A stretch of DNA of 37,513 nucleotides from NCBI GenBank assembly GCA_043738665.1, contig JAYUFP010000536.1, forward strand, positions 1 through 37,513. Direction: 5' to 3'. The notes under the pieces were generated by a model. The model saw only the letters and a program-made list of their open reading frames with translations. It did not search any database and had not been told where the DNA came from. The stretch is from Isosphaeraceae bacterium (GTDB taxonomy: Bacteria > Planctomycetota > Planctomycetia > Isosphaerales > Isosphaeraceae). The position numbers and the translations under genes are program-made. Positions 5,151 through 35,977 of the stretch are shown here, one piece after another. Numbering within the stretch: the stretch's first letter is position 1; each line of letters begins with the position of its first letter.

Positions 5151-6337
5151 CTTTGGCTTTGCTTTCCGGCCAGGACACGAAGGAAGGCGAAAAGGCATTG
5201 GTGGCGATACGTGCGGCGTACGAAGCCAATCGCGCCGCGCTGTCGGCGACCAGCACGATTCGCTTTCATTCCTGTGATGGAGAACTCGGTTCGGCGTCGA
5301 ACGTTGAAGGCTTTGACGCCGCGTTGAAGGGCGATTGGAAGCGCCTATCCCCTTCCGAAGGCGTTTACTTCTGCGACGGTTTGTACCGTCGCCAAGACAA
5401 TTTGCACACTCTGGAGGTGCTCAAGGCTCGCCGGGTGAAGACCTCACCGACGACTGCCATGTCCACGATTTGGTCGCGCCGTTTATTGACCGATGGCGAG
5501 ACCACGTTAATCGATAACATTGGTGTCGGCACAAACGATCAGACGACCATTCATTCGGCGAATTTGCGTGCCGGAGTTAAAGAGTTCTACCGGCTCGTGG
5601 ATGGCATCCCGCTAAGTCTCGGGAACCCCGATCCTCCCAGTTATGACCTGGGCAAGTGCCTGTCGAAGGTTCTGGAGAGGCGCGAAGGCGCGGTCCTCGT
5701 CGAGTTTGATGACGCGGCTCGACTCGACGGCGTACCTGTGGTCAAGATCAGCGTCGATTTTCAAACCAAAGCCACGAAGCAAAAGTTCACGTTTTGGGTC
5801 GATTTAGGACACGGGGCCATCCCTGTTCAGACTCGGTTGCTGGAATACGTCCCGCATGGAGATGTTACCGCGCTCATCCAGATGAATAACCACGACATCA
5901 AACGAGTGGAGCGGGGTTGGCTGCCTTTCCGTTGGTCTCTCGCCGAAGCATACCTCACCCCGAGCGGCGGGACCACCACGTCGATCGCTCGGGAAGTCGT
6001 GATCGAAGAGGCCAACTTCACCCAACGACCCTACCGCGCGGTATTCGCCCTCGCATTCCCCACCGATGTCACAGTTTCCGACTCAGATCGGTTGCTCGGC
6101 TTCGGACGACGACGGGTGTGGGACGTAAACGACTTTTCCCCGGCCGCGAGGAGTCGAGCCAAGCCGCTCAAGCTCGGAAATTCGACGACGTCCATTCCCA
6201 CGATGCCAGTTGAGCGGATTCCATGGGGTTGGCGGCCTGTGTTTTTGACGCTACTCGGCATCGTGTTACTTCTGACCTCATGCACGATCTTTTATCGCAA
6301 GGCACACCGCCATGAGCCCTCCTTTTCCAATCAGTGA
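5126..6337 (+). CDS. secreted / C-terminally membrane-anchored hypothetical protein (403 aa)
   Basis: Internal ATG of ORF 5054..6337 with AAGGAG 7 nt upstream. Signal-like [17 protein letters not shown] and a C-terminal TM segment [20 protein letters not shown]. Confidence 0.7.
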
Positions 6338-7367
6338 GCGATCGGAAACCAGGGGATTTACACTCATCGAGCTCCTGGTGGTGGTCTTTGTGATCGGCGT
6401 GCTCGCCGCGCTCTTGCTGCCCGCCGTTCAAGCCTCTCGCGAAGCGTCGCGACGGATCGATTGCATCAACCATCTCAAGCAGGTCGGCATCGCTCTGCAA
6501 TCGTACGAATCCATTTATGGTTTCTTTCCAGGCGTGGTTACGATCAGCGGCTCGGTAGGCAAGACGACATACTCGAACCACGGTTATAGCCCCCTGGTCA
6601 GGATGCTCGCCCAGATGGACCAGGGGCCGCTATACAACGCCACAAACCTGACCGGCGAAGCCACCCTCCCAAGCTCGCTATGGGCCAACATCACCGCGAT
6701 GAGCCTCACGGTCAATCTGTTCCTGTGTCCCGCCGACTTAATACCGCCTGTCTCGGGATACGGTCGCTCCAGTTATCGTTTCAACATCGGCCCAAGCCCT
6801 TGGCACGCGCCTGCACCTTTGAAGCAGGATGCCAATGACGGTCCGTTCACCACTCATCGATTCTATGGACCCGCTTCCTTCAAGGATGGACTGTCACAAA
6901 CCGTCGGCGCCTCGGAACGGCTTCAGGGGAACTGGACGGCGGGTGTCTGGTCGGATGGCGACTACGTCGTGACGGGCGCGGGCGACGCTCTCATGGGGAG
7001 TCTCACGCAACCCGTGACGACCGATTGGGTGCTTTCGGTGTGCGCCTCCGCCTCGGCGTCTTTGCCGATTGAAACCCGATCGGGAGAGAGTTGGTTCCTT
7101 TCGGGTTATCACTTCACGAACTACAACCATTGCGCGACGCCGAACGCCAAGATCCATGATTGCTCGATCTACTCGTTCAAGGAAGACATCCATTGGCGAA
7201 CCTTGCACGAAGGGGTCTTCACCGCTCGGAGTCGGCACCCGGGAGGCGTCAACGCGATGATGATGGACGGCAGCGTGCGATTCATCCGCGATCCGATCAA
7301 TTTGGCGGTCTGGCGCGCGTTGGCCACTCGCGAGCGCGGGGACATCGTTTCCGGCGACAGCTATTAG
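6312..7367 (+). CDS. DUF1559 / H-X9-DG protein with prepilin-type N-terminal cleavage-methylation domain
   Basis: [43 protein letters not shown] at the N-terminus and [17 protein letters not shown] (H-X9-DG) near the C-terminus. This is the classic planctomycete family. Confidence 0.92.
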
Positions 7368-19600: not shown

Positions 19601-20719
19601 ATGAAGGCCCTCTGCAACCGCGAAGGATTGCTCGCCGCATTTGGGGCGGTCGGCATGGTGGTTCCGGTCCGGAGCCCGAAACCGATCCTCCAGAGCGTCA
19701 AGCTCGTGGCGGACGCCGAGGACGGCTCGATCCTGATGGCGACCGACCTCGAAGTCGGGATCAGGCACCGGGTGCTCGGCATGAAGGTGGACCAGGCCGG
19801 CTCGGCGATCTTGCCGATGGCGCGGTTCTCGTCGATCCTCCGCACCAGCTCCGACCCCGAGATCTCGCTGGAAGCCGACGGCGAACGGCTCCACGTCCGC
19901 GGCCTCCGCGCCGAGTTCTCGCTCCCCGGGGAAGACCCGAGTCTTTACCCCGAAGTGCCGGACTTCGCCGCGACCGCCTTTCACACCGTCGCCGCGGCCG
20001 ACCTCCGCAAATTGATCCGCCGGACGATCTTCGCGACCGACGTGGAGAGCACCCGGTACGCCCTGGGAGGCGTCCTCGTCGAGCTGACGGCCGAAACCAT
20101 CACGATGGTCGGCACCGACGGCCGCAGGCTCGCCAGGATGTCCGCCCCGGCCGAGGCCGAGAACGACGCGACGAACCCCGCCGGAAGCCCCGTCATCCCC
20201 GTGAAGGCGTTAAAGCTGATCGAACGGAACCTTGAAGACTCCGACCCGCCGGTCCACATCGCCATCCAGGGGACGACCGCCGTGCTCGTCCGCACCGAGC
20301 GCGCCGTGATTTACTCCCGGCTCGTCGAAGGCCGCTTCCCCCGGTATCAGGACGTCTTCCCGGCGAACGTCGACGTCAAGATCCGCCTCGAAGTCGGCCC
20401 GTTGCGGCTCGCCGTGGAGCAGGCGTCGATCGTCACGAGCGAGGAGAGCCGAGGGGTCGATTTCTCGTTCGGCAACGGCGTCTTGAAGCTGTCGAGCCAG
20501 GCGGCCGACGTGGGAACCTCGCACGTCGAGCTGCCGATCGGCTACGAAGGCAAGCCCGTCGAGATCACGTTCGACCCCCGCTACCTGACCGACGCCTTGA
20601 AAACCCTCGAAGACACCGCCGAGATCACCGCCGAACTGATCGACGCCAAGAACGCCGCCGTCTTCAAGACCGACGATCGGTACACGTACGTGGTGATGCC
20701 GTTGACGCGGGACCGGTGA
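19601..20719 (+). CDS. dnaN: DNA polymerase III beta subunit (sliding clamp)
   Basis: 372 aa. Starts MKALCNREGLLAAFGAVGMVVPVRSPKPILQSVKLVA... and ends ...YTYVVMPLTRDR, with three-domain clamp length and pattern. Confidence 0.96.
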   Translation: MKALCNREGLLAAFGAVGMVVPVRSPKPILQSVKLVADAEDGSILMATDLEVGIRHRVLGMKVDQAGSAILPMARFSSILRTSSDPEISLEADGERLHVRGLRAEFSLPGEDPSLYPEVPDFAATAFHTVAAADLRKLIRRTIFATDVESTRYALGGVLVELTAETITMVGTDGRRLARMSAPAEAENDATNPAGSPVIPVKALKLIERNLEDSDPPVHIAIQGTTAVLVRTERAVIYSRLVEGRFPRYQDVFPANVDVKIRLEVGPLRLAVEQASIVTSEESRGVDFSFGNGVLKLSSQAADVGTSHVELPIGYEGKPVEITFDPRYLTDALKTLEDTAEITAELIDAKNAAVFKTDDRYTYVVMPLTRDR

Positions 20720-21092: not shown

Positions 21093-21506
21093 ATGGCGAG
21101 CCCGAGCCCGAAACACCGAGGACCCAAGGCGGTCTCCGACATCCTCGCGGAACTCTTCGCCGCGAAGGGGCTCGCCAGGCTCGGCGCCGCGAAGGCGCTC
21201 GAAGACGCCTGGAACGCGGCGGTGGGCGAGCCGCGTTGCAAGCTGACAAAGCTCGGCGAGGTCCGCCGGGGGATCCTGAACGTCACGGTGGCGCACTCAG
21301 CCTTGCTCGAAGAACTCGCCGCGTTCGAAAAGTCGAGGCTCCTGAAGGCCCTCCGCCAAAGCGTCCCCGACCTCTCCGTGCTCGACATCCGGTTTCGCGT
21401 GGGTCCAATCCTCACGACGCCCAAAGAGCCTAATAAGGCCGAAAACCCGCCCCACCGGCCTTTCGGCGGGAAACGTAATGGCAAGCGAACCGAGGAGGGC
21501 TACTGA
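21093..21506 (+). CDS. dciA: DUF721 / DciA-like protein
   Basis: VSDILAELFAAKGLARLGAAKALEDAWNAAVGEPRCKLTKLGEVRRGILNVTVAHSALLEELAAFEKSRLLKAL matches the DUF721 pattern and the usual position between dnaN and gyrB. Start uncertain (21093 preferred; the track gives 20973). Confidence 0.8.
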   Translation: MASPSPKHRGPKAVSDILAELFAAKGLARLGAAKALEDAWNAAVGEPRCKLTKLGEVRRGILNVTVAHSALLEELAAFEKSRLLKALRQSVPDLSVLDIRFRVGPILTTPKEPNKAENPPHRPFGGKRNGKRTEEGY

Positions 21507-22273
21507 TGGAACCGCGATCGCCGACCTCGGCGGTGCTTGAGCCCTTGCCGGTGCCGTTGGATCAACTGTATCGGATGTCGCCCGAAGTCTACCAAGGGAT
21601 GATCGAGCACGGCCTGTTGAACGCCGACGGCCGGGACCGAGTGGAACTCGTCGATGGCTTTTTGGTCGTGGAAGGTGTGTCGGCTGATCCCATTGACAGG
21701 CTCTACCGGATTCCCCTGGAGGTTTACCTTGAGACCGCCGAGATCGGGTTGCTCGGGCCGCCGGATAAGGTCGAGATGCTTGACGGGGTTCTGGTGAAAC
21801 AGATGACCAAAGGCCACCCGCATTACACTGCGACGATGTTGGTTGTAGAGGCCCTCAAAGCGATCATCTCAAAAGGCTGGATCGTCAGACCCGAAGGCCC
21901 TGTCGCCCTGTCATCAGGCCCAAAAGGGCGTCCGTCGGTTCCGGAACCCGACGTGACGGTTGCCCGAGGTGCATGGCGTGATTATTCGAGCCGCAATCCG
22001 ACACCGGAAGACACCGCGCTGGTCGTCGAGGTGGCCGACAGCTCCCTGCGTAAGGATCGGAAGGGGCTGGCCCGCTATTCGTGGACGAACATCCCCGTCG
22101 TCTGGATCGTCAACCTGAATGAGCAAACCGTCGAGGTCTACTCCCGGCCGACCGGCCCGGGCGAATTTTCGAAATATCAAGAAATGACGACTTACGGCCC
22201 GGATGACGAAATTCCCGCGGTGATCGACGGGCATGAGGTCGGCAAGGTCGCCGTGAAAGACTTCTTGCCCTGA
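21506..22273 (+). CDS. Uma2 (DUF820) family restriction-endonuclease-fold protein, paralogue 1
   Basis: PEPDVTV...ALVVEVADSSLRKDRKGLARYSWTNIPVVWIVNL. TGATG overlap with the DUF721 gene. The N-terminal LYRxxxEVY...VELxDGxLV segment is duplicated. Confidence 0.85.
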   Translation: MEPRSPTSAVLEPLPVPLDQLYRMSPEVYQGMIEHGLLNADGRDRVELVDGFLVVEGVSADPIDRLYRIPLEVYLETAEIGLLGPPDKVEMLDGVLVKQMTKGHPHYTATMLVVEALKAIISKGWIVRPEGPVALSSGPKGRPSVPEPDVTVARGAWRDYSSRNPTPEDTALVVEVADSSLRKDRKGLARYSWTNIPVVWIVNLNEQTVEVYSRPTGPGEFSKYQEMTTYGPDDEIPAVIDGHEVGKVAVKDFLP

Positions 22274-23176: not shown

Positions 23177-25732
<2,556 letters not shown>

Positions 25733-25858: not shown

Positions 25859-27121
25859 ATGACCAGGACTGAATTAGAAGAAGAACAGTTACTACCTCTT
25901 GTGCAAAATGCTCCCACCGCATTTCTCCGACGTCTAAAGATTCGGAATTACAAGAGTATCGGTAATTGCGACGTTGAACTCAGACCCCTAACGGTATTGG
26001 TTGGTCGAAACGGCTCGGGAAAGAGTAATTTTCTCGACGCGCTGCGATTTGTTGCAGACGCACTAAGGACATCTCTCGATCATGCGATCAAATCTCGCGG
26101 CGGCATCGACGAGGTTAGACGGCGCGTCGCAGGTCACCCAAACAATTTCGCATTGGAACTGGAGGTCGACCTTGGAGACGGCCGTTGGGCGCACTACGGT
26201 TTTGAAGTGGCGGCACGAAAGAAAGGCGGATTCTCGGTCAAGAAGGAAGCTCTTCAAATTCGAGGAGGTCTAAACCAACTGGTGGGTTCATACCGTCTCG
26301 ATGAAGGGAAACTGACCCATTCTAGCGAGACGCCAATGCCCCCAGCGTCTTCCGACCGACTGTATCTGGTGAACGCCGCCGGTCTTCCTACATTTCGCTC
26401 TGTTTACGATGCGCTACTTACGATGGGATTCTACAACCTGAATCCCGAATCGATGAAGGCTCTCCAGAGTCCGGACGCGGGAGAAATCTTACATCGCGAT
26501 GGTGGGAACATCGCGAGCGTGATCGGTCGGATTGGCAACGACCGTCCGCCAATCAAAGAGCGAATCAAGGAATACCTGGCAACGATTGTACCCGGTGTAA
26601 CGGACGTCAGTCGAATTCCTCTTGGGCCTAAAGAGACACTAGAGTTTCGTCAAAAGGTACACAAGTCGCCCTCGCCCTGGAAATTCCTCGCGAATAGTAT
26701 GTCAGATGGAACATTGCGGGCTCTTGGAACGCTTGTCGCCGTCACCCAGTTGGCGGAAGGGGCCGCACCTGTTAGGTTAGTAGGCATTGAGGAACCGGAG
26801 ACCGCGCTTCATCCCGCAGCGTCGGGGGCCTTGATGGATGCGTTGCGAGAAGCGGCGGTCCATACTCAAGTTGTGGTGACCACACACAGCCCCGATCTTC
26901 TTGACAGAGTCAATCCTGAAACTGACCGACTTCTCGTCGTCGAGATTCGCGATGGAGATACTAAAGTCGCCCCCATCGACGCCGCCAGTCTCAAGGTCAT
27001 CAAGAAGCAATTGTATACGCCTGGCGAACTCCTTCGCATGGACCAACTCGAGCTTGATTGGAGAGACCTCGAACGTCAAAAACAAATTGATATGTTCGAA
27101 TATTCGGAGCCGCGGAAATGA
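25859..27121 (+). CDS. ABC-type (AAA_15/AAA_21, OLD/RecF-like) ATPase
   Basis: LKIRNYKSIGNCDVELRPLTVLVGRNGSGKSNFLDAL (Walker A), LVGIEEPETALHP (Walker B/D-loop), VVVTTHSPDLL (H-loop). GC clearly lower than the flanks. Confidence 0.88.
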   Translation: MTRTELEEEQLLPLVQNAPTAFLRRLKIRNYKSIGNCDVELRPLTVLVGRNGSGKSNFLDALRFVADALRTSLDHAIKSRGGIDEVRRRVAGHPNNFALELEVDLGDGRWAHYGFEVAARKKGGFSVKKEALQIRGGLNQLVGSYRLDEGKLTHSSETPMPPASSDRLYLVNAAGLPTFRSVYDALLTMGFYNLNPESMKALQSPDAGEILHRDGGNIASVIGRIGNDRPPIKERIKEYLATIVPGVTDVSRIPLGPKETLEFRQKVHKSPSPWKFLANSMSDGTLRALGTLVAVTQLAEGAAPVRLVGIEEPETALHPAASGALMDALREAAVHTQVVVTTHSPDLLDRVNPETDRLLVVEIRDGDTKVAPIDAASLKVIKKQLYTPGELLRMDQLELDWRDLERQKQIDMFEYSEPRK

Positions 27122-27732
27122 GCCGCCTCCGGGTTGTTCCCATAGTCGAGGGAAATGGAGAAGTCGAATGCGTTCGCATCTTAATTGAGCGCATCTGGGC
27201 TATGGTAGGGGGGGAGTATGTGTCGGTATGCCGTCCGATTCTTCAGTCACGTGGTCTTCTGGTCAAGAAAGAAGGTCTGACCAGAGCGATTGATTTGGCG
27301 AGAGAAAAACTCGGAGATCTTCCCGAGTCTTCTGATCCGGAAATGGTATTGATTCTGCTCGACGCGGATGAAGACTGTGCTTATGAGTGGGGGCGAAAGC
27401 TGCTTGGATGGGGCCGTGAAGCGCATTCCGATCTCGATTTGGCGTGTGTACTGGCAGTGAGCGAATATGAGACCTGGTTTGCGGCCTCGGCTGAGTCACT
27501 CAAGAAATCCCTCGATCTTCCCCCTGATTTCGTTGCGTCGGACGACTCGGAAAAATCCCGGCACGGGAAGCGCTGGGTCGAACGCTATCGACGCGGGGCG
27601 AGTTATCAGGAGACCATCGACCAGCCTAAGATGACCAGCGTGATGGACCTAGATTTATGTCGCAGGCGTTCGCGGTCGTTTAACAAACTCTGTCGCGAAT
27701 TTGAACAGCGACTTGGTAAAGAAATCGCCTGA
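27118..27732 (+). CDS. DUF4276-like protein (Toprim-like, putative nuclease partner of the ATPase)
   Basis: ATGA overlap with the ATPase gene. PIVEGNGEVECV (Toprim-type Glu) and LILLDADEDC (DxD). About 200 aa, as in DUF4276. Confidence 0.75.
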   Translation: MSRLRVVPIVEGNGEVECVRILIERIWAMVGGEYVSVCRPILQSRGLLVKKEGLTRAIDLAREKLGDLPESSDPEMVLILLDADEDCAYEWGRKLLGWGREAHSDLDLACVLAVSEYETWFAASAESLKKSLDLPPDFVASDDSEKSRHGKRWVERYRRGASYQETIDQPKMTSVMDLDLCRRRSRSFNKLCREFEQRLGKEIA

Positions 27733-27871: not shown

Positions 27872-28141
27872 ATGCCCGCCACGCTGAAAACCTATGCGTT
27901 CTCCGTCGTCCTGGCGGGCGTCGATGAGTTGTCGAAAAAGATCGCCGACGCCGTCTTTGAGGCCGGTTGCGACGACGCGGGCGTCGGGAGTTGCGAAGGG
28001 GTGGTGACCGTCGATTTCGACCGCGAGGCGGATTCCCCGGGTGATGCGATCGGGTCCGCCGTCAACGACCTGGCAAACGCCGGGTTCGCCGTGGCCAGGG
28101 TCGTCGTGGAAGCCCGGGCAGAGGGACGACCGCGCCGTTGA
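27872..28141 (+). CDS. small acidic hypothetical protein (89 aa)
   Basis: MPATLKTYAFSVVLAGVDELSKKIADAVFEAGCDDAGVGSCEGVVTVDFDREADSPGDAIGSAVNDL. Host-like GC. From memory it resembles a recurrent uncharacterised small-protein family. Confidence 0.6.
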   Translation: MPATLKTYAFSVVLAGVDELSKKIADAVFEAGCDDAGVGSCEGVVTVDFDREADSPGDAIGSAVNDLANAGFAVARVVVEARAEGRPRR

Positions 28142-28525
28142 GCCGGACAAGGCCAGTTCAGTCCGGACGGGAAAACGCACGACGGCGTCGGGAGTTTCGG
28201 AATTTTTGTTCAAGTTCGCGAGGTTTTTACGCCCTTATGGGTCGTTTTCGGCGGCGCCGGGCAAAGTCCTTCGGCGATCGGAACGGCGACTGCGTGAAGG
28301 GACAGTGAGACCTTGATCGGTGTCAGTGTCCGTCAGTCAGGCGAAAGTCCGTACGGCGTGAACTCTTGGTGAGGCACTCCTCCCCGCGTCGGGCCGGTCC
28401 CGCCGCACCCGAGGTTCCAGTGCGTGTCGGTGTGGCCTCGCCCCCCGGCGTCGGTTCGGTTCAATTCGATTCGTGACAGGACGCCCCGACCGCACCACGG
28501 TCCGGTGATCGGTATTTGGGAACGA

Positions 28526-31500
28526 ATGATGGGGATCGCCCAGAAGATATCCAGGGATTTCAGCGACGCGGTCCGCTCTCGCGGGCAGTCGTACTTCGCC
28601 AAGGGGCGCGTGGTCATCACGGGCGCGACCGCCGGTGAGGTCGCGGCGCGGGTGCGGGGGACGGCCAAGTACCGCGTCCGCCTCCGGCTCCGCAACGGCA
28701 GGCTCCACATCGCCTGCAGTTGCCCCTATTTCACGCCCACCGGCGACCCCTGCAAACACGTCTGGGCCACCGTGCTGATGGCCGACGCGAGGGGACTCAT
28801 CCAGCCTTCGCCGGTCCGCCCCTTGAAACTCGTCAGCGACGTCCCCAGGCACCCCCAGGGCACCCCGGAAAACGGCCCGGCAGGCCCGCAAAACTACGCC
28901 GGGGGTCCCGGACAGCAGGGACAAAGGCCAGGCCCGGGTCCGCAAGGGCAAGGCTACGGCCAGAGGCAACAACAACCCGGCGGCCCCGGCCCGCACGGTC
29001 CCGGCCGACAAGGACCCGGTCAGAACGGCCCGGGGCGGCAAGGTGCCGGTCCCAACGGACCCGGAAGACCAGGCACCGGCCAGAACGGCCCGGGGGGGCG
29101 GCAGGTTCCCGGCCCGCACGGCCCGGGCCGGCAAAGCCCCGGTCATGGTCCCGGTCCCGGTCCCGGACCCGGTCCGAACGGACCCGGTCAGCCTCAGTTG
29201 CGTGGAAAGAAAGATCGTCGAGGGCGAGTGGTTCCCGGTACGCAAGGTCCCGGCCCCGGTACGGGTTACGGTCCCGGCCCCGGCTCGGGTTACGGCCCCG
29301 GCCCGGGTTCGAATTACGGTCCCGGCCCCGGTCAACCCTGGGTCGCCGGTCGCGAGCGTGGTGACAGGACCCGTGAAAAGGTCGACGCCAAGGCGCGTGC
29401 CAAGGTCGTCAACCGCGGGGCCAAGCGGCTGCTCGTCTTCGTGATCGACGTCCCTTCGACCCTCGCTCAGAGCCAGGTGGTCGTCGACCTCTATCGTCGC
29501 CAGCGCCGTCCCGGCGGCGACTGGGGTCCGCTAAAACCCTGGTGGCACTCGCCGGACTCCGCACAGGCCAAGTACGACCCCGACGACCGCGACTTGCTCG
29601 TCCTGCTCGAAGACGCGCAGACCCCCTCCGCGGCGGCGGCGGCGGCGGCCTCGTCGTCACCTTTGGCGGCGGCCAAGGCGCTCCTGAACGGCACGAATCC
29701 GCCGCCGGGAACGGGCGACTCGGTCGGCACCAGGCGCTACGTCCTCAAGCCCGACCGGATCGACGTCGTCGAGGCCCTCGCCAAGAGCGGCAGACTCCGC
29801 CTGAAACGCACCGAGGGCGAAGACGACCCCCCGACCATGCGCTGGGACGACGGCCCGACCTGGCGGTTCGGACTCGACGTCAAACCCGAACTCGGCGGCA
29901 AACGCTGGTCGTGGCGCGGGGCCTTGCGTCGCGGAGAGCCCAAACCCGACCGCATGGACCTCGCCGAACCCCTGGTGCTCGTCCCCGGACTGTTAATCCT
30001 CGGGGTCGGCCGCGCCGCGCGATTCGACGACGTCGGCGTCATGACATGGATCATCAGACTCCGCCACGAAAAGGAAATCGTCTTCGCCGAGCCCCAGCAG
30101 GACATCATGCTCGGCAGGATTCTCGGCGAGGCCAAGATCAGCGCGACCGAACTGATCGACACGATCCAGTTCGAGGAGATCGACACCAAACCCCGCCCCT
30201 GCCTGACGATCCGCGCCCCCCGGCAGAACTGGGGGGCCGCGGCCGACAAGCTCCTCGCCGAACTCGAATTCGACTACGACGGCGCGGTCATCCCGGCGGG
30301 ACGCACGACCCCCATGGCGGTCTCCACCGAGCACGGCCTGTCGATCCGCCGCGACACCGCCACCGAACATGCCGCCGACATTCTTTTATTCGAGATGGGC
30401 TTCCGTGAGTCGAAAGACCCCCGCGTCGAACCGGGGACCATGGAGATCGCCGCCAAGCGTGCCGCGCAGGTCTCTCGGGACCTCGCCGCGGTGGGCTGGC
30501 GGGTCGAAGCCGAAGGGAAGCTGATCCGCCCCGCGGGCGAGTTCAAGCTCTCGGTCACCACGGGGATCGACTGGTTCGAGCTCGACGGTCATGTCGATTA
30601 CGGCGGGGCCACGATCCCCCTGCCCGAACTCCTCGCCGCGGCGCGCCGGGGGGAGACCTCGGTCACCCTCAGCGACGGCTCCGTGGGCGTGCTTCCTGAG
30701 GAGTGGATCAAGAAATACGGCCTGCTCGTCGACCTCGGCACCGAGGAAGACGGTCACTACCGCTTCGGCACGTCGCAGGCCGGGGTGCTCGACGCCCTGG
30801 TCGCCGCGCAGCCGGACATCCGCGTCGACGAGGCGTTCGAAAAGATCCGCCAGAGCCTGACGAAATTCGAAGGGATCGTTCCGCTCGACGCCCCCTCGGG
30901 GTTCCACGGCGAACTCCGCCCGTATCAGTGCGAAGGCCTGGGCTGGCTCGATTACCTCGTCCGGTTCGGCTTCGGGGGAATCCTCGCCGACGACATGGGC
31001 CTGGGCAAGACCGTGCAGGTGCTGGCGTTCCTTCAAAGACGAAGGACCCGCAGGCAGGCGAAAGGGCCGACGCTGGCGGTGGTGCCGCGCTCGCTCGTGT
31101 TCAACTGGATCCAGGAGGCCGCGAAGTTCACGCCGAGGCTCCGGGTTCTCGACTACACCGGCCCCAACCGGCACCCGCTCCGCGAGGAGTTCCGCGACTA
31201 CGACCTGATCGTGACCACTTATGGAACCCTCCGCACCGACATCGCCGAGCTGACCGGGATCGAGTTCGACTACATCCTGCTCGACGAGGCCCAGGCGATC
31301 AAGAACGCCGAGAGCCAGGCCGCCAAGGCCGCAAGGCTCCTGCGAGGCAAGCACCGGCTGGCGATGAGCGGAACGCCGATCGAGAACCACCTGGGAGAAC
31401 TCTGGTCGATCTTCGAATTCTTAAACCCCGGGATGCTCGGGACCAACCCCGTCTTCAAACGGCACACGACGGGCGCGGGAGCCCTGGATGACACCGACCG

Positions 31501-32290
31501 CCAGATCCTGGCCAGGTCGCTCAAGCCGTTCATCCTCCGAAGGACCAAGGCCCAGGTGGTTCAGGATTTGCCCGAAAAGACCGAGCAAACCCTCCACTGC
31601 GACATGGAGCCCGCCCAGCGGAAGATTTACGAGGAGTTGCGGACCCACTACCGCACGGCCCTCTTGAGGAAAGAAACCGCCGAGCTGAACCGTTCGAAGA
31701 TCGAGGTGCTGGAAGCCCTCCTCCGGCTCCGCCAGGCGGCGTGCCACCCCGGCCTGATCGACCCGACCCTCACTTCCGAGCCCAGCGCCAAGCTCGACAT
31801 GCTCTTGCCGCAGATCGCCGAAGTGGTGGAGGAAGGGCACAAGATCCTTGTTTTCTCGCAGTTCACGAGCTTCCTGGCGATCGTCAAGGAACGCCTCGAC
31901 AAGGAAGGCCTGGTCTACGAATACCTCGACGGCCGCACGAGAAACCGCGAGGAGCGCGTGAACCGGTTCCAGAACGACCCGACCGTGAAGATCTTCCTGA
32001 TCAGCCTGAAAGCGGGCGGTTTAGGTTTGAATCTCACCGCGGCCGAATATGTCTATTTATTAGATCCCTGGTGGAACCCCGCCGTCGAAGCCCAGGCCAT
32101 CGACCGTTCGCACCGGATCGGCCAGACCCAGAGGGTTTTCGCGTACCGATTGATTTGTCGAGACACGGTCGAGGAAAAGATCCTCGAACTCCAGCAAAAG
32201 AAGCGCGACCTCGCCGACGCGATTTTGAACGCGGACAACCGGGTGATCTCGAATCTGTCGCGGGAGGATCTGGAGTTCTTGCTGTCGTGA
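28526..32290 (+). CDS. SWIM zinc-finger + SNF2-family helicase/translocase (about 1254 aa)
   Basis: SWIM CSCPYFTPTGDPCKHVWA; SNF2 motifs LRPYQCEGLGWL, LADDMGLGKTVQ, LDEAQAIKN, SGTPIENHL; C-terminal helicase motifs FLISLKAGGLGLNLTAA and WWNPAVEAQAIDRSHRIGQ. Start taken at ATGATG 28526. Confidence 0.93.
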   Translation: MMGIAQKISRDFSDAVRSRGQSYFAKGRVVITGATAGEVAARVRGTAKYRVRLRLRNGRLHIACSCPYFTPTGDPCKHVWATVLMADARGLIQPSPVRPLKLVSDVPRHPQGTPENGPAGPQNYAGGPGQQGQRPGPGPQGQGYGQRQQQPGGPGPHGPGRQGPGQNGPGRQGAGPNGPGRPGTGQNGPGGRQVPGPHGPGRQSPGHGPGPGPGPGPNGPGQPQLRGKKDRRGRVVPGTQGPGPGTGYGPGPGSGYGPGPGSNYGPGPGQPWVAGRERGDRTREKVDAKARAKVVNRGAKRLLVFVIDVPSTLAQSQVVVDLYRRQRRPGGDWGPLKPWWHSPDSAQAKYDPDDRDLLVLLEDAQTPSAAAAAAASSSPLAAAKALLNGTNPPPGTGDSVGTRRYVLKPDRIDVVEALAKSGRLRLKRTEGEDDPPTMRWDDGPTWRFGLDVKPELGGKRWSWRGALRRGEPKPDRMDLAEPLVLVPGLLILGVGRAARFDDVGVMTWIIRLRHEKEIVFAEPQQDIMLGRILGEAKISATELIDTIQFEEIDTKPRPCLTIRAPRQNWGAAADKLLAELEFDYDGAVIPAGRTTPMAVSTEHGLSIRRDTATEHAADILLFEMGFRESKDPRVEPGTMEIAAKRAAQVSRDLAAVGWRVEAEGKLIRPAGEFKLSVTTGIDWFELDGHVDYGGATIPLPELLAAARRGETSVTLSDGSVGVLPEEWIKKYGLLVDLGTEEDGHYRFGTSQAGVLDALVAAQPDIRVDEAFEKIRQSLTKFEGIVPLDAPSGFHGELRPYQCEGLGWLDYLVRFGFGGILADDMGLGKTVQVLAFLQRRRTRRQAKGPTLAVVPRSLVFNWIQEAAKFTPRLRVLDYTGPNRHPLREEFRDYDLIVTTYGTLRTDIAELTGIEFDYILLDEAQAIKNAESQAAKAARLLRGKHRLAMSGTPIENHLGELWSIFEFLNPGMLGTNPVFKRHTTGAGALDDTDRQILARSLKPFILRRTKAQVVQDLPEKTEQTLHCDMEPAQRKIYEELRTHYRTALLRKETAELNRSKIEVLEALLRLRQAACHPGLIDPTLTSEPSAKLDMLLPQIAEVVEEGHKILVFSQFTSFLAIVKERLDKEGLVYEYLDGRTRNREERVNRFQNDPTVKIFLISLKAGGLGLNLTAAEYVYLLDPWWNPAVEAQAIDRSHRIGQTQRVFAYRLICRDTVEEKILELQQKKRDLADAILNADNRVISNLSREDLEFLLS
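28855..29335 (+). repeat. Gly/Pro/Gln-rich low-complexity coding insert inside the SNF2 gene
   Basis: Translation GPQNYAGGPGQQGQRPGPGPQGQGYGQRQQQPGGPGPHGPGRQGPGQNGPGRQGAGPNGPGRPG...GPGPGTGYGPGPGSGYGPGPGSNYGPGPGQ, with degenerate DNA tandem repeats. Confidence 0.9.
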
Positions 32291-32315: not shown

Positions 32316-33764
32316 ATGTCGCAGATTGACGCCGATGAAAATGAGAAGATATTGATCATGAGTGAATTTCGCAAAGCCACGAAACTGAGCGAAGTCGCGG
32401 CGGTGATCGATCTGGAACCGCTAGGCCTGAAGGATAAGCGATACGAGAACCTTGCCGCCGGCCGTGGCGGGTCAAATGAACTCGCGGAGTTACGCGAGTG
32501 TCTCAAGAACTACGACGCCTCGGACAACAGATTCGCCAAGATCGCCTTCACGGGGCATCGCGGTAGCGGCAAGACCACCGAGCTCTATCGTCTCGAAGAC
32601 GACGTTTCCGACCGCTTCACGACCGTTCACTTTACTGCCGACGAGGCCCTGCTCGGCGAATATGATTACACCGACCTGTTCCTCTGGCTGGTTGACGAGA
32701 TCGTCCGAAAATTCGAGGCCGACGGGATGCCTCTCGACCGCCAACTCGCCGAGCAGGTCGCCCGTTGGTTCGATGCCGTGACCATGAAGCAGACGGACAA
32801 GGTGACTTCGGAAATCAAGCTGGAGACCGAGGCAAGCGCCGGCGTCAAGACGGGGCTATTCGGATTGAGTTTGGGGATTTTCGCCAAGCTGAAATCGATG
32901 ATGAAGGGGAGCACCGAGCGCCGGAAAGAGATCCGTCGGGATCTTCAAAACAAGTCGTCCGAGCTGATCGCGGGCGTCAATTTGTTACTCGACAACGCCC
33001 ACAAGGTTCTCGCCGAGAACAATAAGCCGGCCAACTTGTTGATCGTGATCGACAACCTCGACCGCCTTACGCCGGAGGTTAGCGGCCCGCTGTTCTTCGA
33101 AAACGGTGAATTCCTCAAGCAACCCCGGGCCCATCTGATCTACACCGTGCCGGTCGCCACGGCGCTCGACCCGTCGATGAACATCGACATGGTCTTCGAC
33201 CGGACGTTCACCCTCTCGATCGTCAAAGTCCGTGACCCTGCGGGCCGGCTTTTCAAGAAAGGGCTCGACGCGCTGGTGGAGACCGTTGCCAAGCGGGTCG
33301 AGATCGACGCGGTGTTTGCAAAGCGAGACGTCGTCCGGAAGCTCGCGGAGATGTCGGGAGGCAGTGTTCGCGACCTCATGAGGCTCATCGGCAACGCTCA
33401 GCTCAGCGCCGCCGCCGACGGAAAAACCAAGATCGACGCCGCCTCGGTCAAACGTGCGGTCCTGAAGATTCGCCTCAGCTTCGAGCGTCTCCTGATCCCG
33501 GGCCAGGTCTATTATCCCCTGCTCGCTCAGATCCACGATTCCAAGCGAGATCGCTCCGACGGCCTTTTAGCCGCCGACCCCGAAAAAGTCGAGACATATC
33601 GCAACTTCTTCAATCATCTCCTCTTCAACGGCTCGGTCCTCGAATACAACGGCGACCGGATGTGGTACGATGTCCACCCGGTGATTCAGGAAATCGAGGC
33701 GTTCAAGAAGGCCTTGAAGGATGTCCAAAGCACCGCGCGAGACAAAGCCTCGGGCACGGGGTAA
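32316..33764 (+). CDS. KAP/STAND-like P-loop NTPase (482 aa)
   Basis: Walker A FTGHRGSGKTTEL. A KAP-style Walker B LLIVIDNLDRLTPE lies about 170 aa later. The insert contains the hydrophobic stretch GVKTGLFGLSLGIFAKL. There is a sensor/lid-like MSGGSVRDLMRLIGNA and a C-terminal winged-helix-like region. Confidence 0.85.
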   Translation: MSQIDADENEKILIMSEFRKATKLSEVAAVIDLEPLGLKDKRYENLAAGRGGSNELAELRECLKNYDASDNRFAKIAFTGHRGSGKTTELYRLEDDVSDRFTTVHFTADEALLGEYDYTDLFLWLVDEIVRKFEADGMPLDRQLAEQVARWFDAVTMKQTDKVTSEIKLETEASAGVKTGLFGLSLGIFAKLKSMMKGSTERRKEIRRDLQNKSSELIAGVNLLLDNAHKVLAENNKPANLLIVIDNLDRLTPEVSGPLFFENGEFLKQPRAHLIYTVPVATALDPSMNIDMVFDRTFTLSIVKVRDPAGRLFKKGLDALVETVAKRVEIDAVFAKRDVVRKLAEMSGGSVRDLMRLIGNAQLSAAADGKTKIDAASVKRAVLKIRLSFERLLIPGQVYYPLLAQIHDSKRDRSDGLLAADPEKVETYRNFFNHLLFNGSVLEYNGDRMWYDVHPVIQEIEAFKKALKDVQSTARDKASGTG

Positions 33765-35190
33765 AAAGGCCGAGAACGAGCGCGAACTCCGCGAACTCGC
33801 GCTCTTCCTCGAAGAGGCCCCCGGCTTCCGTCTCGGCCTGGCCTGCATCGACAATGTCCAGACCCGCCAGACCCAGCTCGAACGCCTCGAAGAGATCATC
33901 GCCTCCCGACCGGTCTTTCTGACCCGGCTCGACCTCGGGAAATTTCGAGACGAAGAGCAGATCCTCCAGAGGCTCCGAGACCACCTCCGCGACAATCCCG
34001 CCCCCGAAGGCAAGACCGCCGCCGTGATGATTATTGGGCTTGAAGCCCATCTCGATTACCGAGACCTCGGCGAAGGAAAAGTTCCCCCGCAACCGATCCT
34101 CCGAAACGCCAACATCCAGCGCGACGCCTACTCCCGCCTCTGCCTTGTTCCCATCGTGCTCTGGCTCTTGCCTTCGGCCGAAACGCTCTTCGCAAAGGAA
34201 GCCCCGGATTTCTGGCACTGGCGGGCGGGAACGTTTCGGTTCATGGCGCCTGCGGGACAGCGAAAGAAATGGGAGGACAATCAGATCGAGATGCCGATTT
34301 TCCAATCCCGGAATCTTTTGGTCTCTGATAAGTCCGATCGGATCTCGCTTCTGAACGATTTGCTTTTTGAACTGGAAAATGCGACCGACCGAGAAACCCG
34401 AGGGAATAAAGCCCGACGGGCCGCCCTCTTGCTGCAACTTGGGAGAGCTTACTTGTTGATGTCTAAAGAAGATGTCGGACTAGACTACTCTCGGAGGGCG
34501 GTTGAACTCTATGTTGAGATCAGCGATCGTCAAGGAGAGGGGATGGCGCTTTGCGATCTTGGTACCTCTTGTGCTCAGCTTAATATGTTTGAGGATGCTT
34601 TAGGATATTTCGAGAAGAGTTTAGCCATCACACGCGAGATCGGAGACCGTGAGGGTGAAGGAACGCTACTTGGCTGTCTAGGCTTTGCCTATGCCGGCAT
34701 GGGGTTAAGAGAAAGAGCTATCGAATACGACGAACAGAGTTTGGCGATTGCGCGTAAAGTGAAGAATCGTGAAGGAGAAGGAACAATATTGGGTCAGTTA
34801 GCTTCTATATACGCTCACAACAAGGAATTTGAAAAGGCGATTCTCCATCAAGAAGAGAGCTTAGCGATCGCCCGTGAAATCGGCAACCGCCGAAGTGAGG
34901 GATCAATCCTCGGAAATATCGGAGCGACTTATGCCAGAATGGGTCAGATAGAGAAGGCGATCGGTTGCCATGAGTTGAGTTTGGCGATCGCCCGTGAAAT
35001 GGGCGACCGTCGTAGCGAAGGCACTGAACTGAGCAATCTGGCCTACACGTACGCCCGCATGGACCAAAAAGCGAAGGCGATTGAATTCCTCAAAGAAGCA
35101 CTTCGAATTGGGCAACAAATTAATGATTCACTAATTATTAATATCGCTATCAAAGGAATCCGTTTTTTGCACTTAGAGTTAAAAACGTAA
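33721..35190 (+). CDS. TPR-repeat protein with a P-loop-less STAND-like N-terminal domain (489 aa)
   Basis: The start overlaps the upstream gene by 44 nt (AAGAAGG about 8 nt upstream). The N-domain GFRLGLACIDNVQTRQTQLERLEE...AAVMIIGLEA...NIQRDAYSRLCLVPIVLWLLPSAETLFAKEAPDFWHWRAGTFRF has no GK[ST]. The C-terminus has six 40-aa TPR units (SLAIAREIGDRRSEG...). Confidence 0.85.
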   Translation: MSKAPRETKPRARGKKAENERELRELALFLEEAPGFRLGLACIDNVQTRQTQLERLEEIIASRPVFLTRLDLGKFRDEEQILQRLRDHLRDNPAPEGKTAAVMIIGLEAHLDYRDLGEGKVPPQPILRNANIQRDAYSRLCLVPIVLWLLPSAETLFAKEAPDFWHWRAGTFRFMAPAGQRKKWEDNQIEMPIFQSRNLLVSDKSDRISLLNDLLFELENATDRETRGNKARRAALLLQLGRAYLLMSKEDVGLDYSRRAVELYVEISDRQGEGMALCDLGTSCAQLNMFEDALGYFEKSLAITREIGDREGEGTLLGCLGFAYAGMGLRERAIEYDEQSLAIARKVKNREGEGTILGQLASIYAHNKEFEKAILHQEESLAIAREIGNRRSEGSILGNIGATYARMGQIEKAIGCHELSLAIAREMGDRRSEGTELSNLAYTYARMDQKAKAIEFLKEALRIGQQINDSLIINIAIKGIRFLHLELKT

Positions 35191-35215: not shown

Positions 35216-35977
35216 ATGATCCATCGAATTCCTTTGGAGGGCTTCGCGACGAACACCGTCACTTCGCCCCGGGAAGAAGTCTCCAAGCCGTCGGCCGCGA
35301 CACCTGCCACGCCTCCACTGGTCGAAGGCCAACATCTCGATCAGCCGACGTTTCACGCCCGTTATGAGGCGATGCCGCCCGGATTTCGCGCGGAATTGAT
35401 TGGCGGTGTGGTTTCGTTCCCGGGTCGTGTCGGGTATGAGCACGGGGAATCGTCGGCGTGTCTTGGGTGCTGGCTGGCCTATTTCCAGGAATTCACGCGC
35501 GGCGTCGATGTGTTGAGCCATGTCACGGTCATTCTCGACGGACGGAACGAGCCTCAGCCCGATATGACGCTTCGGATCCTTCCGGAATGCGGGGGACGGA
35601 CTCGGGATGAGGACGGGTACGTCGTGGGCGTTCCCGAGATGGTCGCCGAGGTTTCCAAATCGTCGAGGTTCATCGACCTCGGCCCGAAGCTCGCCGAATA
35701 CGAGCGGGCGGGGGTTTTGGAGTACCTGGTGCGAGCGTTCGACCCCGACGAGGTCCTCTGGCATGTCCTGCAAGAAGGCCGGCTTGCGGCGGTGCCGCCC
35801 GACGAAGACGGACTGTACCATTCCCGAGTTTTCCCCGGCCTCTGGCTCGACCCGCAGGCCCTTCTCGCCCTCGACACCAGGCGCTTGCGGGAGGTGATCG
35901 ACCTCGGGGCGAAATCCCCCGAACACGCCGCGTTCGTCGCCAAGCTCGCCTCGGCCCGGGAGAAGCCGGCGGGTTGA
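35216..35977 (+). CDS. Uma2 (DUF820) family endonuclease-fold protein, third paralogue
   Basis: FHARYEAMPPGFRAELIGGVV...EPQPDMTLRI...VPEMVAEVSKSSRFIDLGPKLAEYERAGVLEYLV. Confidence 0.8.
   Translation: MIHRIPLEGFATNTVTSPREEVSKPSAATPATPPLVEGQHLDQPTFHARYEAMPPGFRAELIGGVVSFPGRVGYEHGESSACLGCWLAYFQEFTRGVDVLSHVTVILDGRNEPQPDMTLRILPECGGRTRDEDGYVVGVPEMVAEVSKSSRFIDLGPKLAEYERAGVLEYLVRAFDPDEVLWHVLQEGRLAAVPPDEDGLYHSRVFPGLWLDPQALLALDTRRLREVIDLGAKSPEHAAFVAKLASAREKPAG

Follow-up and report, generated by a model that had tools for sequence, protein, structure and literature searches.

A conserved two-gene cassette pairing an ORC/Cdc6-like ATPase with a degenerate AAA+ tetratricopeptide repeat protein: a candidate split STAND/NLR-like immune sensor

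Two overlapping genes on a 37,513-nucleotide stretch of DNA from an Isosphaeraceae bacterium of the Planctomycetota (GenBank assembly GCA_043738665.1, contig JAYUFP010000536.1, positions 1 to 37,513; the whole stretch is called the window below) form a conserved two-gene cassette that recurs across phyla. The first, gene A, encodes an ATPase of the ORC/Cdc6 type whose catalytic motifs are intact, and the second, gene B, encodes a protein in which an AAA+ domain that has lost its P-loop is joined to an array of tetratricopeptide repeats (TPRs). We propose, at a probability of roughly 55%, that the pair is a self-contained, horizontally mobile immune sensor and switch of the STAND/NLR-like kind, split over two polypeptides. 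The features of the pair are as follows.

Gene A: positions 32316 to 33764, forward strand; open reading frame of 482 amino acids, active-type AAA+ ATPase
Gene B: positions 33721 to 35190, forward strand; open reading frame of 489 amino acids, degenerate AAA+ domain plus TPR array
Overlap of A and B: positions 33721 to 33764, forward strand; 44 nucleotides, encoding disordered tails of A and B
N-terminal domain of B: positions 33721 to 34395, forward strand; residues 1 to about 225, degenerate AAA+ domain, P-loop-less
TPR array of B: positions 34396 to 35190, forward strand; six 40-residue repeats of the TPR_12 type

Conservation of the overlapping pair

The pair had first been picked out by a model that worked from the letters and open reading frames of the window (the original prediction), and its pairing with overlapping reading frames was found to extend across phyla. 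A scan of GTDB, with one genome per species, returned at least 565 loci with a relative of A, of which 80 were fetched, and at 68 of these a downstream open reading frame on the same strand could be called. A B-type gene follows A at 62 of the 68, recognised by jackhmmer searches for the N-terminal domain of B with E values from 1e-43 to 1e-82; at the remaining six loci the downstream open reading frames are 55–88 codons long, and five of them adjoin the end of a contig. The two genes overlap by at least 4 nucleotides in 57 of the 62 pairs and by 35–65 nucleotides in 40, with the same relative frame kept in 56. Relative to A, the frame of B is nearly always +1.

Because the N terminus of B (MSKAxR or MxSSKK) is conserved among homologues, the long overlap is genuine and does not stem from the way start codons were chosen. 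The tails of A and B that are encoded in the overlap have a low predicted local distance difference test score (pLDDT) and are modelled as disordered, and the 44 shared nucleotides probably couple the translation of the two genes.

Clustering all 876 open reading frames of the 80 loci against each other gave only two clusters of wide occurrence, that of A at 77 loci and that of B at 61; the next most frequent occurred at 8 loci, and no third gene conserved with the pair emerged from this clustering among the 80 loci. Starting instead from B, an A-family gene was found directly upstream in all three look-ups, two of which had unusual architectures.

Relatives of A occur in Planctomycetota, Alphaproteobacteria, Actinomycetes, Verrucomicrobia, Bacteroidetes, Deltaproteobacteria and many Cyanobacteria, and additionally in Acidobacteriota, Chloroflexota, Thiotrichaceae/Beggiatoa-like bacteria, WOR-3 and the archaeon Methanothrix, a patchy distribution that crosses domains. 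Two contigs of one Nostoc metagenome-assembled genome (loci L032 and L079) each carry an A homologue, so that in some genomes the cassette occurs more than once. Two metagenomic proteins (P0121 and P0122) read through from the C terminus of A into B with garbled segments, and were taken as artefacts of assembly or frameshift.

Predicted architecture of the two proteins

Protein A carries a Walker A motif (GHRGSGKTTEL, residues 80–90), a Walker B motif (LLIVIDNLDRL, with D246 and D249) and a sensor-2-like motif (SGGSVRDLMRL), all three of which stay unchanged, or almost so, in 20 close homologues and 30 diverse ones. Across the 30 diverse members, little or no variation is seen in GHRGxGK[ST]TEL, in D246 (itself invariant) and D249 or in T277, so that Walker A, Walker B and sensor 1 are intact, and R352, the sensor-2 arginine in the lid, is invariant. 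The intact Walker A of the 482-residue protein, as originally predicted, was thus confirmed and is conserved in homologues as well; the ATPase is probably active. In the homologue alignment, no invariant arginine lies between strands β4 and β5.

An AlphaFold2 model of A built from a 20-sequence alignment (pLDDT 85, predicted template modelling score 0.85) shows a base in which β1 (residues 75–80) leads into the P-loop, β3 (240–246) carries Walker B and β4 spans residues 273–279. Between β2 and β3, an insert of six helices and about 125 residues (110–235) is modelled as a soluble helical bundle. At the C terminus, a helical lid containing R352 is followed by a winged helix with a β-hairpin at residues 441–453. 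Foldseek comparison with the PDB placed archaeal Cdc6/Orc1 first (1fnn, E = 1.8e-8), then 2qby and 2v1u, with 2fna among the best matches; these were followed by HslU, which also has an inserted domain, and then by RuvB, SSO1545 and eukaryotic ORC subunits, the lid of A aligning to the sensor-2 region of RuvB. As modelled, A is an AAA+ ATPase of the ORC/Cdc6-STAND type with base, insert, lid and winged helix.

The original prediction had described A as a KAP-style NTPase with an insert of about 170 residues carrying a hydrophobic stretch, and this description held in part. The form of Walker B is that of the KAP family and the Pfam model KAP_NTPase (PF07693) does match A, with 24.9 bits where 20 is the cut-off (E = 1.5e-5, profile positions 23–168 of 293, a marginal match), but the modelled structure is ORC/Cdc6-like and the insert has no transmembrane helix in a 19-residue Kyte–Doolittle scan. 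The best 19-residue mean in A, 1.13, falls on the amphipathic segment SAGVKTGLFGLSLGIFAKL, so that the hydrophobic stretch does not qualify as a membrane-spanning helix, and the size given for the insert turned out too large, since 161 residues is the distance from Walker A to Walker B. KAP NTPases, as Aravind and co-workers are said to have described in 2004, have transmembrane helices inserted in the P-loop domain. As the insert of A has no such segment, the KAP label is marginal and covers only the form of Walker B and the presence of an insert. Matches of the Pfam models AAA_22 and AAA_16 to A are below threshold, and the best NCBIfam match to A or B, a Sll1717-family model, scores 27 bits against a cut-off of 75. 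The PADLOC models PDC-S20, QatA and mad8 give weak, partial matches to the A family (E values from 1e-3 to 1e-6); PDC-S20 matches A itself in the P-loop region only (E = 8.6e-4, 16.9 bits), with a best value of 1.5e-6 among 30 family members.

Residues 1–245 of B were modelled by AlphaFold2 from 36 sequences (pLDDT 90) as a five-stranded α/β domain followed by helices. All of the 50 best Foldseek matches to this N-terminal domain are AAA+ ATPases or AAA+ assemblies, with Aeropyrum ORC2 first (1w5t, E = 2.4e-5) and Trip13, CbbX, p97, human ORC2-5 and RFC/Rad17 among the others. Strand β1 (residues 37–43) runs into a two-residue loop in the position of the P-loop, the Walker B strand β3 reads VMIIGLE and ends in G106-L-E108, and the sensor-1 position is held by Leu-Pro, with no polar residue; GK[ST] occurs nowhere in the family alignment. 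What is conserved in the family includes a block of the form PIVLWLLP...APDFWHWRAG and the residues G106-L-E108, N131, R134, D135 and A161-P-D163-F-W..W167. The model thus describes the domain as a degenerate AAA+/STAND-like core whose nucleotide-binding motifs have been lost, and the original prediction of a P-loop-less STAND-like core proved correct.

This relation is seen by fold comparison only: residues 1–235 of B have no match in Pfam, which holds no model for the domain, and a sequence search of the PDB with the B profile returned nothing meaningful. The family is nevertheless large, as a profile run exhaustively against 1.84 billion cluster representatives (50% identity) found the N-terminal domain of B in 3,573 of them at E <= 1e-3 and in 1,454 at E <= 1e-10. 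Word-indexed homologue searching, which gave 2 and then 6 matches, badly underestimates it. Two further ideas about the domain were rejected. A recent origin by duplication of the ATPase domain of A finds no place at the sequence level (hhalign probability 0.3%), and a trans-acting arginine finger in the W-R-S/A-G segment after W167 is contradicted by the arginine itself, which is replaced by K, S, T, Q, N or I in many members; R134 of B is invariant, but sits on helix α3 and not at the canonical finger position.

The remainder of B consists of six TPR units of 40 residues (about residues 237–476) with the consensus LGxLGxxYxxxGxxxxAIxxxExSLAIAREIGDRxGEG. The number of units, already given as six in the original prediction, is supported both by the repeat register and by Pfam TPR_12 (E = 6.4e-35, residues 240–470). 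TPRs are present in 56 of the 62 B homologues, in numbers of units that range from 0 to 14 across the homologues. Identity to two related loci is 63% in the TPR part against 83% in the N-terminal domain (L081) and 30% against 53% (L083), making the repeats the fastest-diverging part of B, and they are also compositionally its most foreign part, with a GC content at third codon positions (GC3) of 0.475. Such divergence, together with the range in unit number, is what a ligand-binding sensor undergoing diversifying exchange would be expected to show, and we regard the array as a putative sensor of this kind.

Links to conflict systems and competing explanations

Evidence for a role in conflict comes from rare variants in which B is fused to further domains. 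These combine B and its TPRs with a CHAT caspase-like protease (Parabeggiatoa, L077), with AAA_16/NACHT and a second set of TPRs (P0154), or with a C-terminal Uma2 nuclease (Nostoc, L025, 9286..11691), and join B to NNH1 and NACHT in Schlesneria (L004); another B homologue (P0199) has a sub-threshold match to a DO-GTPase. More distant relatives of A (24–27% identity) are found on plasmids of cyanobacteria and acidobacteria. Two of them, in Nostoc ATCC 53789 and on Acaryochloris pREC1, are followed by proteins of 1,844 and 1,920 residues, respectively, with a B-type N-terminal domain at the start (E about 1e-23) and WD40 propellers at the end, and the Acaryochloris copy is flanked by integrases, HicAB modules and a NACHT protein. 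On a plasmid of Nostoc UHCC 0302, a distant A is accompanied by a downstream protein of 2,059 residues.

An A-like module was also found inside a known type of conflict system. Plasmid p057_J of Nostoc sp. C057 (L089, 1985..7158) encodes a complete VMAP-MoxR-vWA ternary system, with Pfam E values of 1.6e-18 for VMAP-M1 and 1.1e-33 for VMAP-C. At the C-terminal end of its third protein (974 residues, labelled as a SAV_2336 N-terminal domain-related protein) stands an A-like ATPase whose P-loop is intact. The position that this module holds is the variable effector slot of VMAP ternary systems (Kaur et al., PMC7159879). Downstream of the system lie HEAT-repeat and formylglycine-generating-enzyme family genes. 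Taken together, the fusions set the A and B domains within the domain-sharing network of NTP-dependent conflict systems, and it is mainly because of them and of the link to the VMAP system that we propose an immune or conflict role.

In the immune sensor and switch that we propose, translational coupling would supply A and B in coupled amounts, and the two would assemble through an AAA+ to AAA+ interface into a hetero-oligomer, by analogy with ORC and clamp loaders, where active subunits are combined with inactive ones, and with an operon of active and inactive STAND proteins (PMC8195603). The TPR array of B would bind a trigger, most likely a protein derived from the invader, and binding would be relayed to A, leading to ATP-dependent switching or oligomerisation. 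The output could come from the winged helix and insert of A acting on nucleic acid, or from unlinked effectors that are recruited; in rare variants the effector (CHAT protease, NACHT or Uma2 nuclease) would be fused to B. A bolder form of this proposal, which we put forward tentatively as a possibility on the doubtful side, holds that the pairs are very widespread split-NLR immune receptors in which the dead AAA+ domain of B docks on A, and in which the hetero-oligomer acts on DNA through winged helix and insert with no dedicated enzymatic effector. If true, this would put to immune use, in bacteria and archaea, a pairing of active and inactive subunits like that of ORC, and would provide a scaffold to which CHAT, NACHT, WD40 or nuclease modules are occasionally added.

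Several observations weigh against an immune role or at least lend it no support. Most of the 148 genes immediately next to the pair at 37 loci are ordinary ones, such as PAS/GAF sensors and transporters, and those with defence-like matches are few: four ATPases of the AAA_21/AriA/mad3 type, three Uma2 genes and two kinases matching PD-T4-6. Enrichment of the pair in defence islands is thus unproven, and of the original prediction of a conflict (defence) module it is the domain fusions, not the neighbourhood, that speak in favour. The minimal pair contains no recognisable effector. Carriage by phages or viruses was considered and dropped, as A-B was found neither in a phage genome collection nor, by the pattern used, in viral contigs of IMG/VR. 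Profile-profile comparison gives no sequence relation between the N-terminal domain of B and A. Furthermore, the pair is syntenic in the planctomycete lineage across considerable divergence, which fits a stable chromosomal function as well as a mobile one.

A stable function of this sort is what we would expect if the pair were a split regulator of the MalT/AfsR type (STAND, TPR and DNA-binding parts), with the TPR array of B sensing a cellular metabolite or protein and A, through its winged helix and oligomerisation dependent on ATP, binding DNA and regulating host genes, in a housekeeping or developmental role in organisms with complex life styles. The ORC/Cdc6-like winged helix of A suits this explanation, as do the weak matches of the B repeats to TPR_MalT, AfsR and NsdA regulator models, the frequent presence of sensor kinases and PAS/GAF proteins next to the pair, its synteny among related planctomycetes and the want of an effector enzyme in the minimal pair. 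No target operon or neighbour is conserved, however, and the patchy cross-domain distribution, the foreign composition and the rapid divergence of the TPRs all fit a regulator poorly, whereas conflict systems, unlike regulators, typically show features such as the CHAT, NACHT and Uma2 fusions and the A-like module of the VMAP ternary system. We consider such a regulator rather unlikely.

The patchy distribution could similarly be explained if A-B served a mobile element, either as an AAA+ regulator or target selector of transposition (TnsC-like) or in plasmid maintenance, and the distant relatives on plasmids near transposases and integrases, together with a very weak similarity to a TnsC profile (E = 0.95), would agree with this. 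But no transposase, integrase or replication gene is conserved beside the pair, the copy in the window is chromosomal and lies between core genes, and the top structural matches are to ORC/Cdc6 and not to TnsC, so that a role of this kind seems highly improbable.

The SWIM-SNF2 helicase and other neighbours

Other features of the window are listed here.

SWIM-SNF2 gene: positions 28424 to 32290, forward strand; 1,288 amino acids, GTG start at 28424, stop at 32290
HEC-01 gene pair: positions 25859 to 27732; AAA_21 (OLD/AbiEii-like) ATPase of 420 amino acids and DUF4276 protein of 204 amino acids
dnaN: positions 19601 to 20719
gyrB: positions 23189 to 25732
Uma2 genes: positions 35216 to 35977 and 21506 to 22273; PD-(D/E)xK-like family
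DUF1559/N_methyl proteins: positions 6312 to 7367

The stop codon of the SWIM-SNF2 gene at 32290 lies 25 nucleotides before the start of A on the same strand, and this spacing, the sizes of the open reading frames and the 44-nucleotide overlap are all as the original prediction placed them. The suggestion that went with it, that the SNF2 protein is a partner or effector of A-B, did not survive. A three-gene system with the SWIM-SNF2 translocase as effector would account for the close spacing and for the gene order at L081, where gyrB, HEC-01, SWIM-SNF2, A, B and Uma2 follow one another as in the window, and the helicase core also matches PADLOC models for DpdE, ZorD and DrmD. These matches extend over the generic helicase core only (BrxH matches weakly), the NCBIfam scores are far under their cut-offs (ZorD 219 against 1500, DrmD 78 against 950, DpdE 35 against 500), and none of the partner genes of Zorya, Dpd or DISARM (ZorABC, DpdA-K, DrmABC) is among the window open reading frames that were scanned. 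Moreover, SNF2, HEC-01 and the Uma2 gene of the window were not detected at any of the 80 GTDB loci, and at L083 the order is SNF2, Uma2, a gene on the opposite strand and then A and B, so that two genes intervene. We therefore rejected SNF2 as a third component, and regard a system built around it as close to refuted.

The rates at which these genes change tell the same story. Between the window and L081, identity is 89.5% for SNF2 and 82% for gyrB (compared over its C-terminal part), against 65% for A, 73% for B, 55% for HEC-01A and 63% for Uma2; A, B, HEC-01 and Uma2 are thus changing far more quickly than gyrB and SNF2 on their flanks. The fact that SNF2 exceeds gyrB in identity to its L081 orthologue suggests that it has a core function in this planctomycete lineage. 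The GC3 values agree with the identities: SNF2, at 0.83, is host-like, as are dnaN (0.91) and gyrB (0.85), whereas A (0.77) and the N-terminal domain of B (0.71) differ and HEC-01 is lower still (0.52–0.55). On these two measures, SNF2 reads as a slowly evolving resident gene flanked by faster-evolving, compositionally foreign cassettes. The compositional mosaic reported in the original prediction is borne out by the same values, which run from 0.475 in the TPR part of B to 0.91 in dnaN. The SNF2 protein contains a low-complexity stretch rich in glycine and proline (PGPGPG..., about residues 150–330) between its SWIM finger and helicase core, and its real start may lie downstream of the GTG at 28424.

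Since it contains both dnaN and gyrB, the window lies in a conserved housekeeping region, and is probably origin-proximal. The DUF1559/N_methyl proteins identify the organism as a planctomycete. One Uma2 gene and an open reading frame of 283 codons lie between dnaN and gyrB. Directly after gyrB comes the neighbour that had been read as an OLD-like ATPase/Toprim module, found here as AAA_21 and DUF4276 proteins that match the PADLOC candidate models HEC-01A and HEC-01B over their full length (E = 1.6e-157 and 4.6e-57, respectively). Its two genes overlap by 4 nucleotides and, with a GC3 far from the value of about 0.85 in the flanking core genes, they are clearly a foreign, fast-evolving cassette, separate from the A-B finding. 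The gap of 690 nucleotides between HEC-01B and SNF2 holds an open reading frame of 89 codons (27872..28141).

On the other side of the pair, the Uma2 gene at 35216 begins 25 nucleotides past the stop codon of B, an adjacency that is repeated at L081. As a regular third gene, Uma2 was rejected, because jackhmmer searches from the window copy found none at the 80 loci and Pfam found only the three among the 148 neighbours; it may be at most an occasional accessory nuclease, or its adjacency may reflect the abundance of Uma2 genes.

Relation to known systems and significance

No named system fits the pair: as the original prediction had supposed, A-B has no real match in PADLOC, in Pfam (beyond the marginal KAP match) or in NCBIfam. 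In the literature searched, of which coverage was incomplete, the pair is nowhere described, and catalogues may list it under another name. The more general idea, an active NTPase working with an inactive STAND protein, is not new, being established in three cases.

The first is a two-gene operon in which an active STAND NTPase accompanies an inactive STAND protein that bears an effector of the GT4 or HEPN kind (Kaur, Burroughs, Iyer, Aravind 2021, eLife, PMC8195603). Like A-B, it is a mobile two-gene unit with one active ATPase and a partner whose NTP-binding motifs are eroded and which bears a variable C-terminal module, and a hetero-oligomer has been proposed. The variable module is an enzyme there, however, and a TPR array in B. 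In this comparison, which was made by description only, the operon proteins also stand near S29/Dap3, RNA12 and the CR-ATPases and have an arginine finger in both partners, whereas A has no invariant candidate between β4 and β5 and the arginine after W167 in B varies.

The second case comes from the ternary conflict systems with MoxR and vWA, to which iSTAND and iSTAND2 belong as components (Kaur et al. 2020 and 2021, PMC7159879, PMC8195603). Here too an inactive STAND/AAA+ domain is the constant part of the presumed sensor component, the phyletic bias is towards Cyanobacteria, Chloroflexi, Planctomycetes and filamentous Proteobacteria, and CHAT/caspase, NACHT and repeats are associated. These systems need MoxR and vWA, though, and neither gene is present in the window or among the gene clusters common to the 80 loci, while the active partner in A-B is ORC/Cdc6-like; the two are set apart by linkage and description. 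The VMAP system at L089 does contain an A-like ATPase, but in the effector position.

The third case is found in BREX, in which BrxC, an AAA+ protein of the ORC/Cdc6 clade, occurs with BrxB, a compact inactive STAND protein (PMC12839542). The likeness lies in an active ORC/Cdc6-like winged-helix ATPase with a separately encoded, fast-evolving, inactive STAND-like protein proposed as sensor. In contrast to A-B, BrxC has about 1,200 residues and BrxB is without TPRs or lid; the PglX, PglZ and BrxA/L genes do not accompany A-B, and the PADLOC Brx models match neither A nor B.

Avs/AVAST and other single-chain STAND/NLR receptors follow the same logic as A-B, in which a switch of the AAA+/STAND type goes with a winged helix and with TPRs that would bind a phage protein, but A-B is split over two genes, its TPR protein bears an additional, dead AAA+ domain, and there is no effector domain; NACHT, NB-ARC and Avs models of Pfam and PADLOC match neither protein, and the PADLOC Avs models give nothing at E <= 0.01. 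The KAP family (PF07693; QatA and the PADLOC candidate PDC-S20 are of this general type) has in common with A a Walker B of the form hhhhDxLDR, separated from Walker A by a large insert, and differs in that the insert of A is without transmembrane helices.

A-B therefore lacks the defining features of each of the three precedents, from which it is set apart because it has no MoxR or vWA, no GT4 or HEPN and no PglX or PglZ, and this particular cassette is undescribed in the sources covered. It is a real and apparently new family within the STAND-like NTPase-sensor class, whose function we infer from the features set out above.

For annotation, the SWIM-SNF2 helicase of this planctomycete should not be listed as part of a defence system, and residues 1 to about 225 of B define a domain by which thousands of entries now called tetratricopeptide repeat protein could be annotated. 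If the pair is immune in function, a large, phylogenetically broad and so far unannotated family would be added to the STAND/NLR-like repertoire. It would also be a natural two-polypeptide NLR in which sensor and switch can be separated genetically and biochemically, and this separation would help in asking how the binding of a ligand to the repeats reaches the AAA+ switch.

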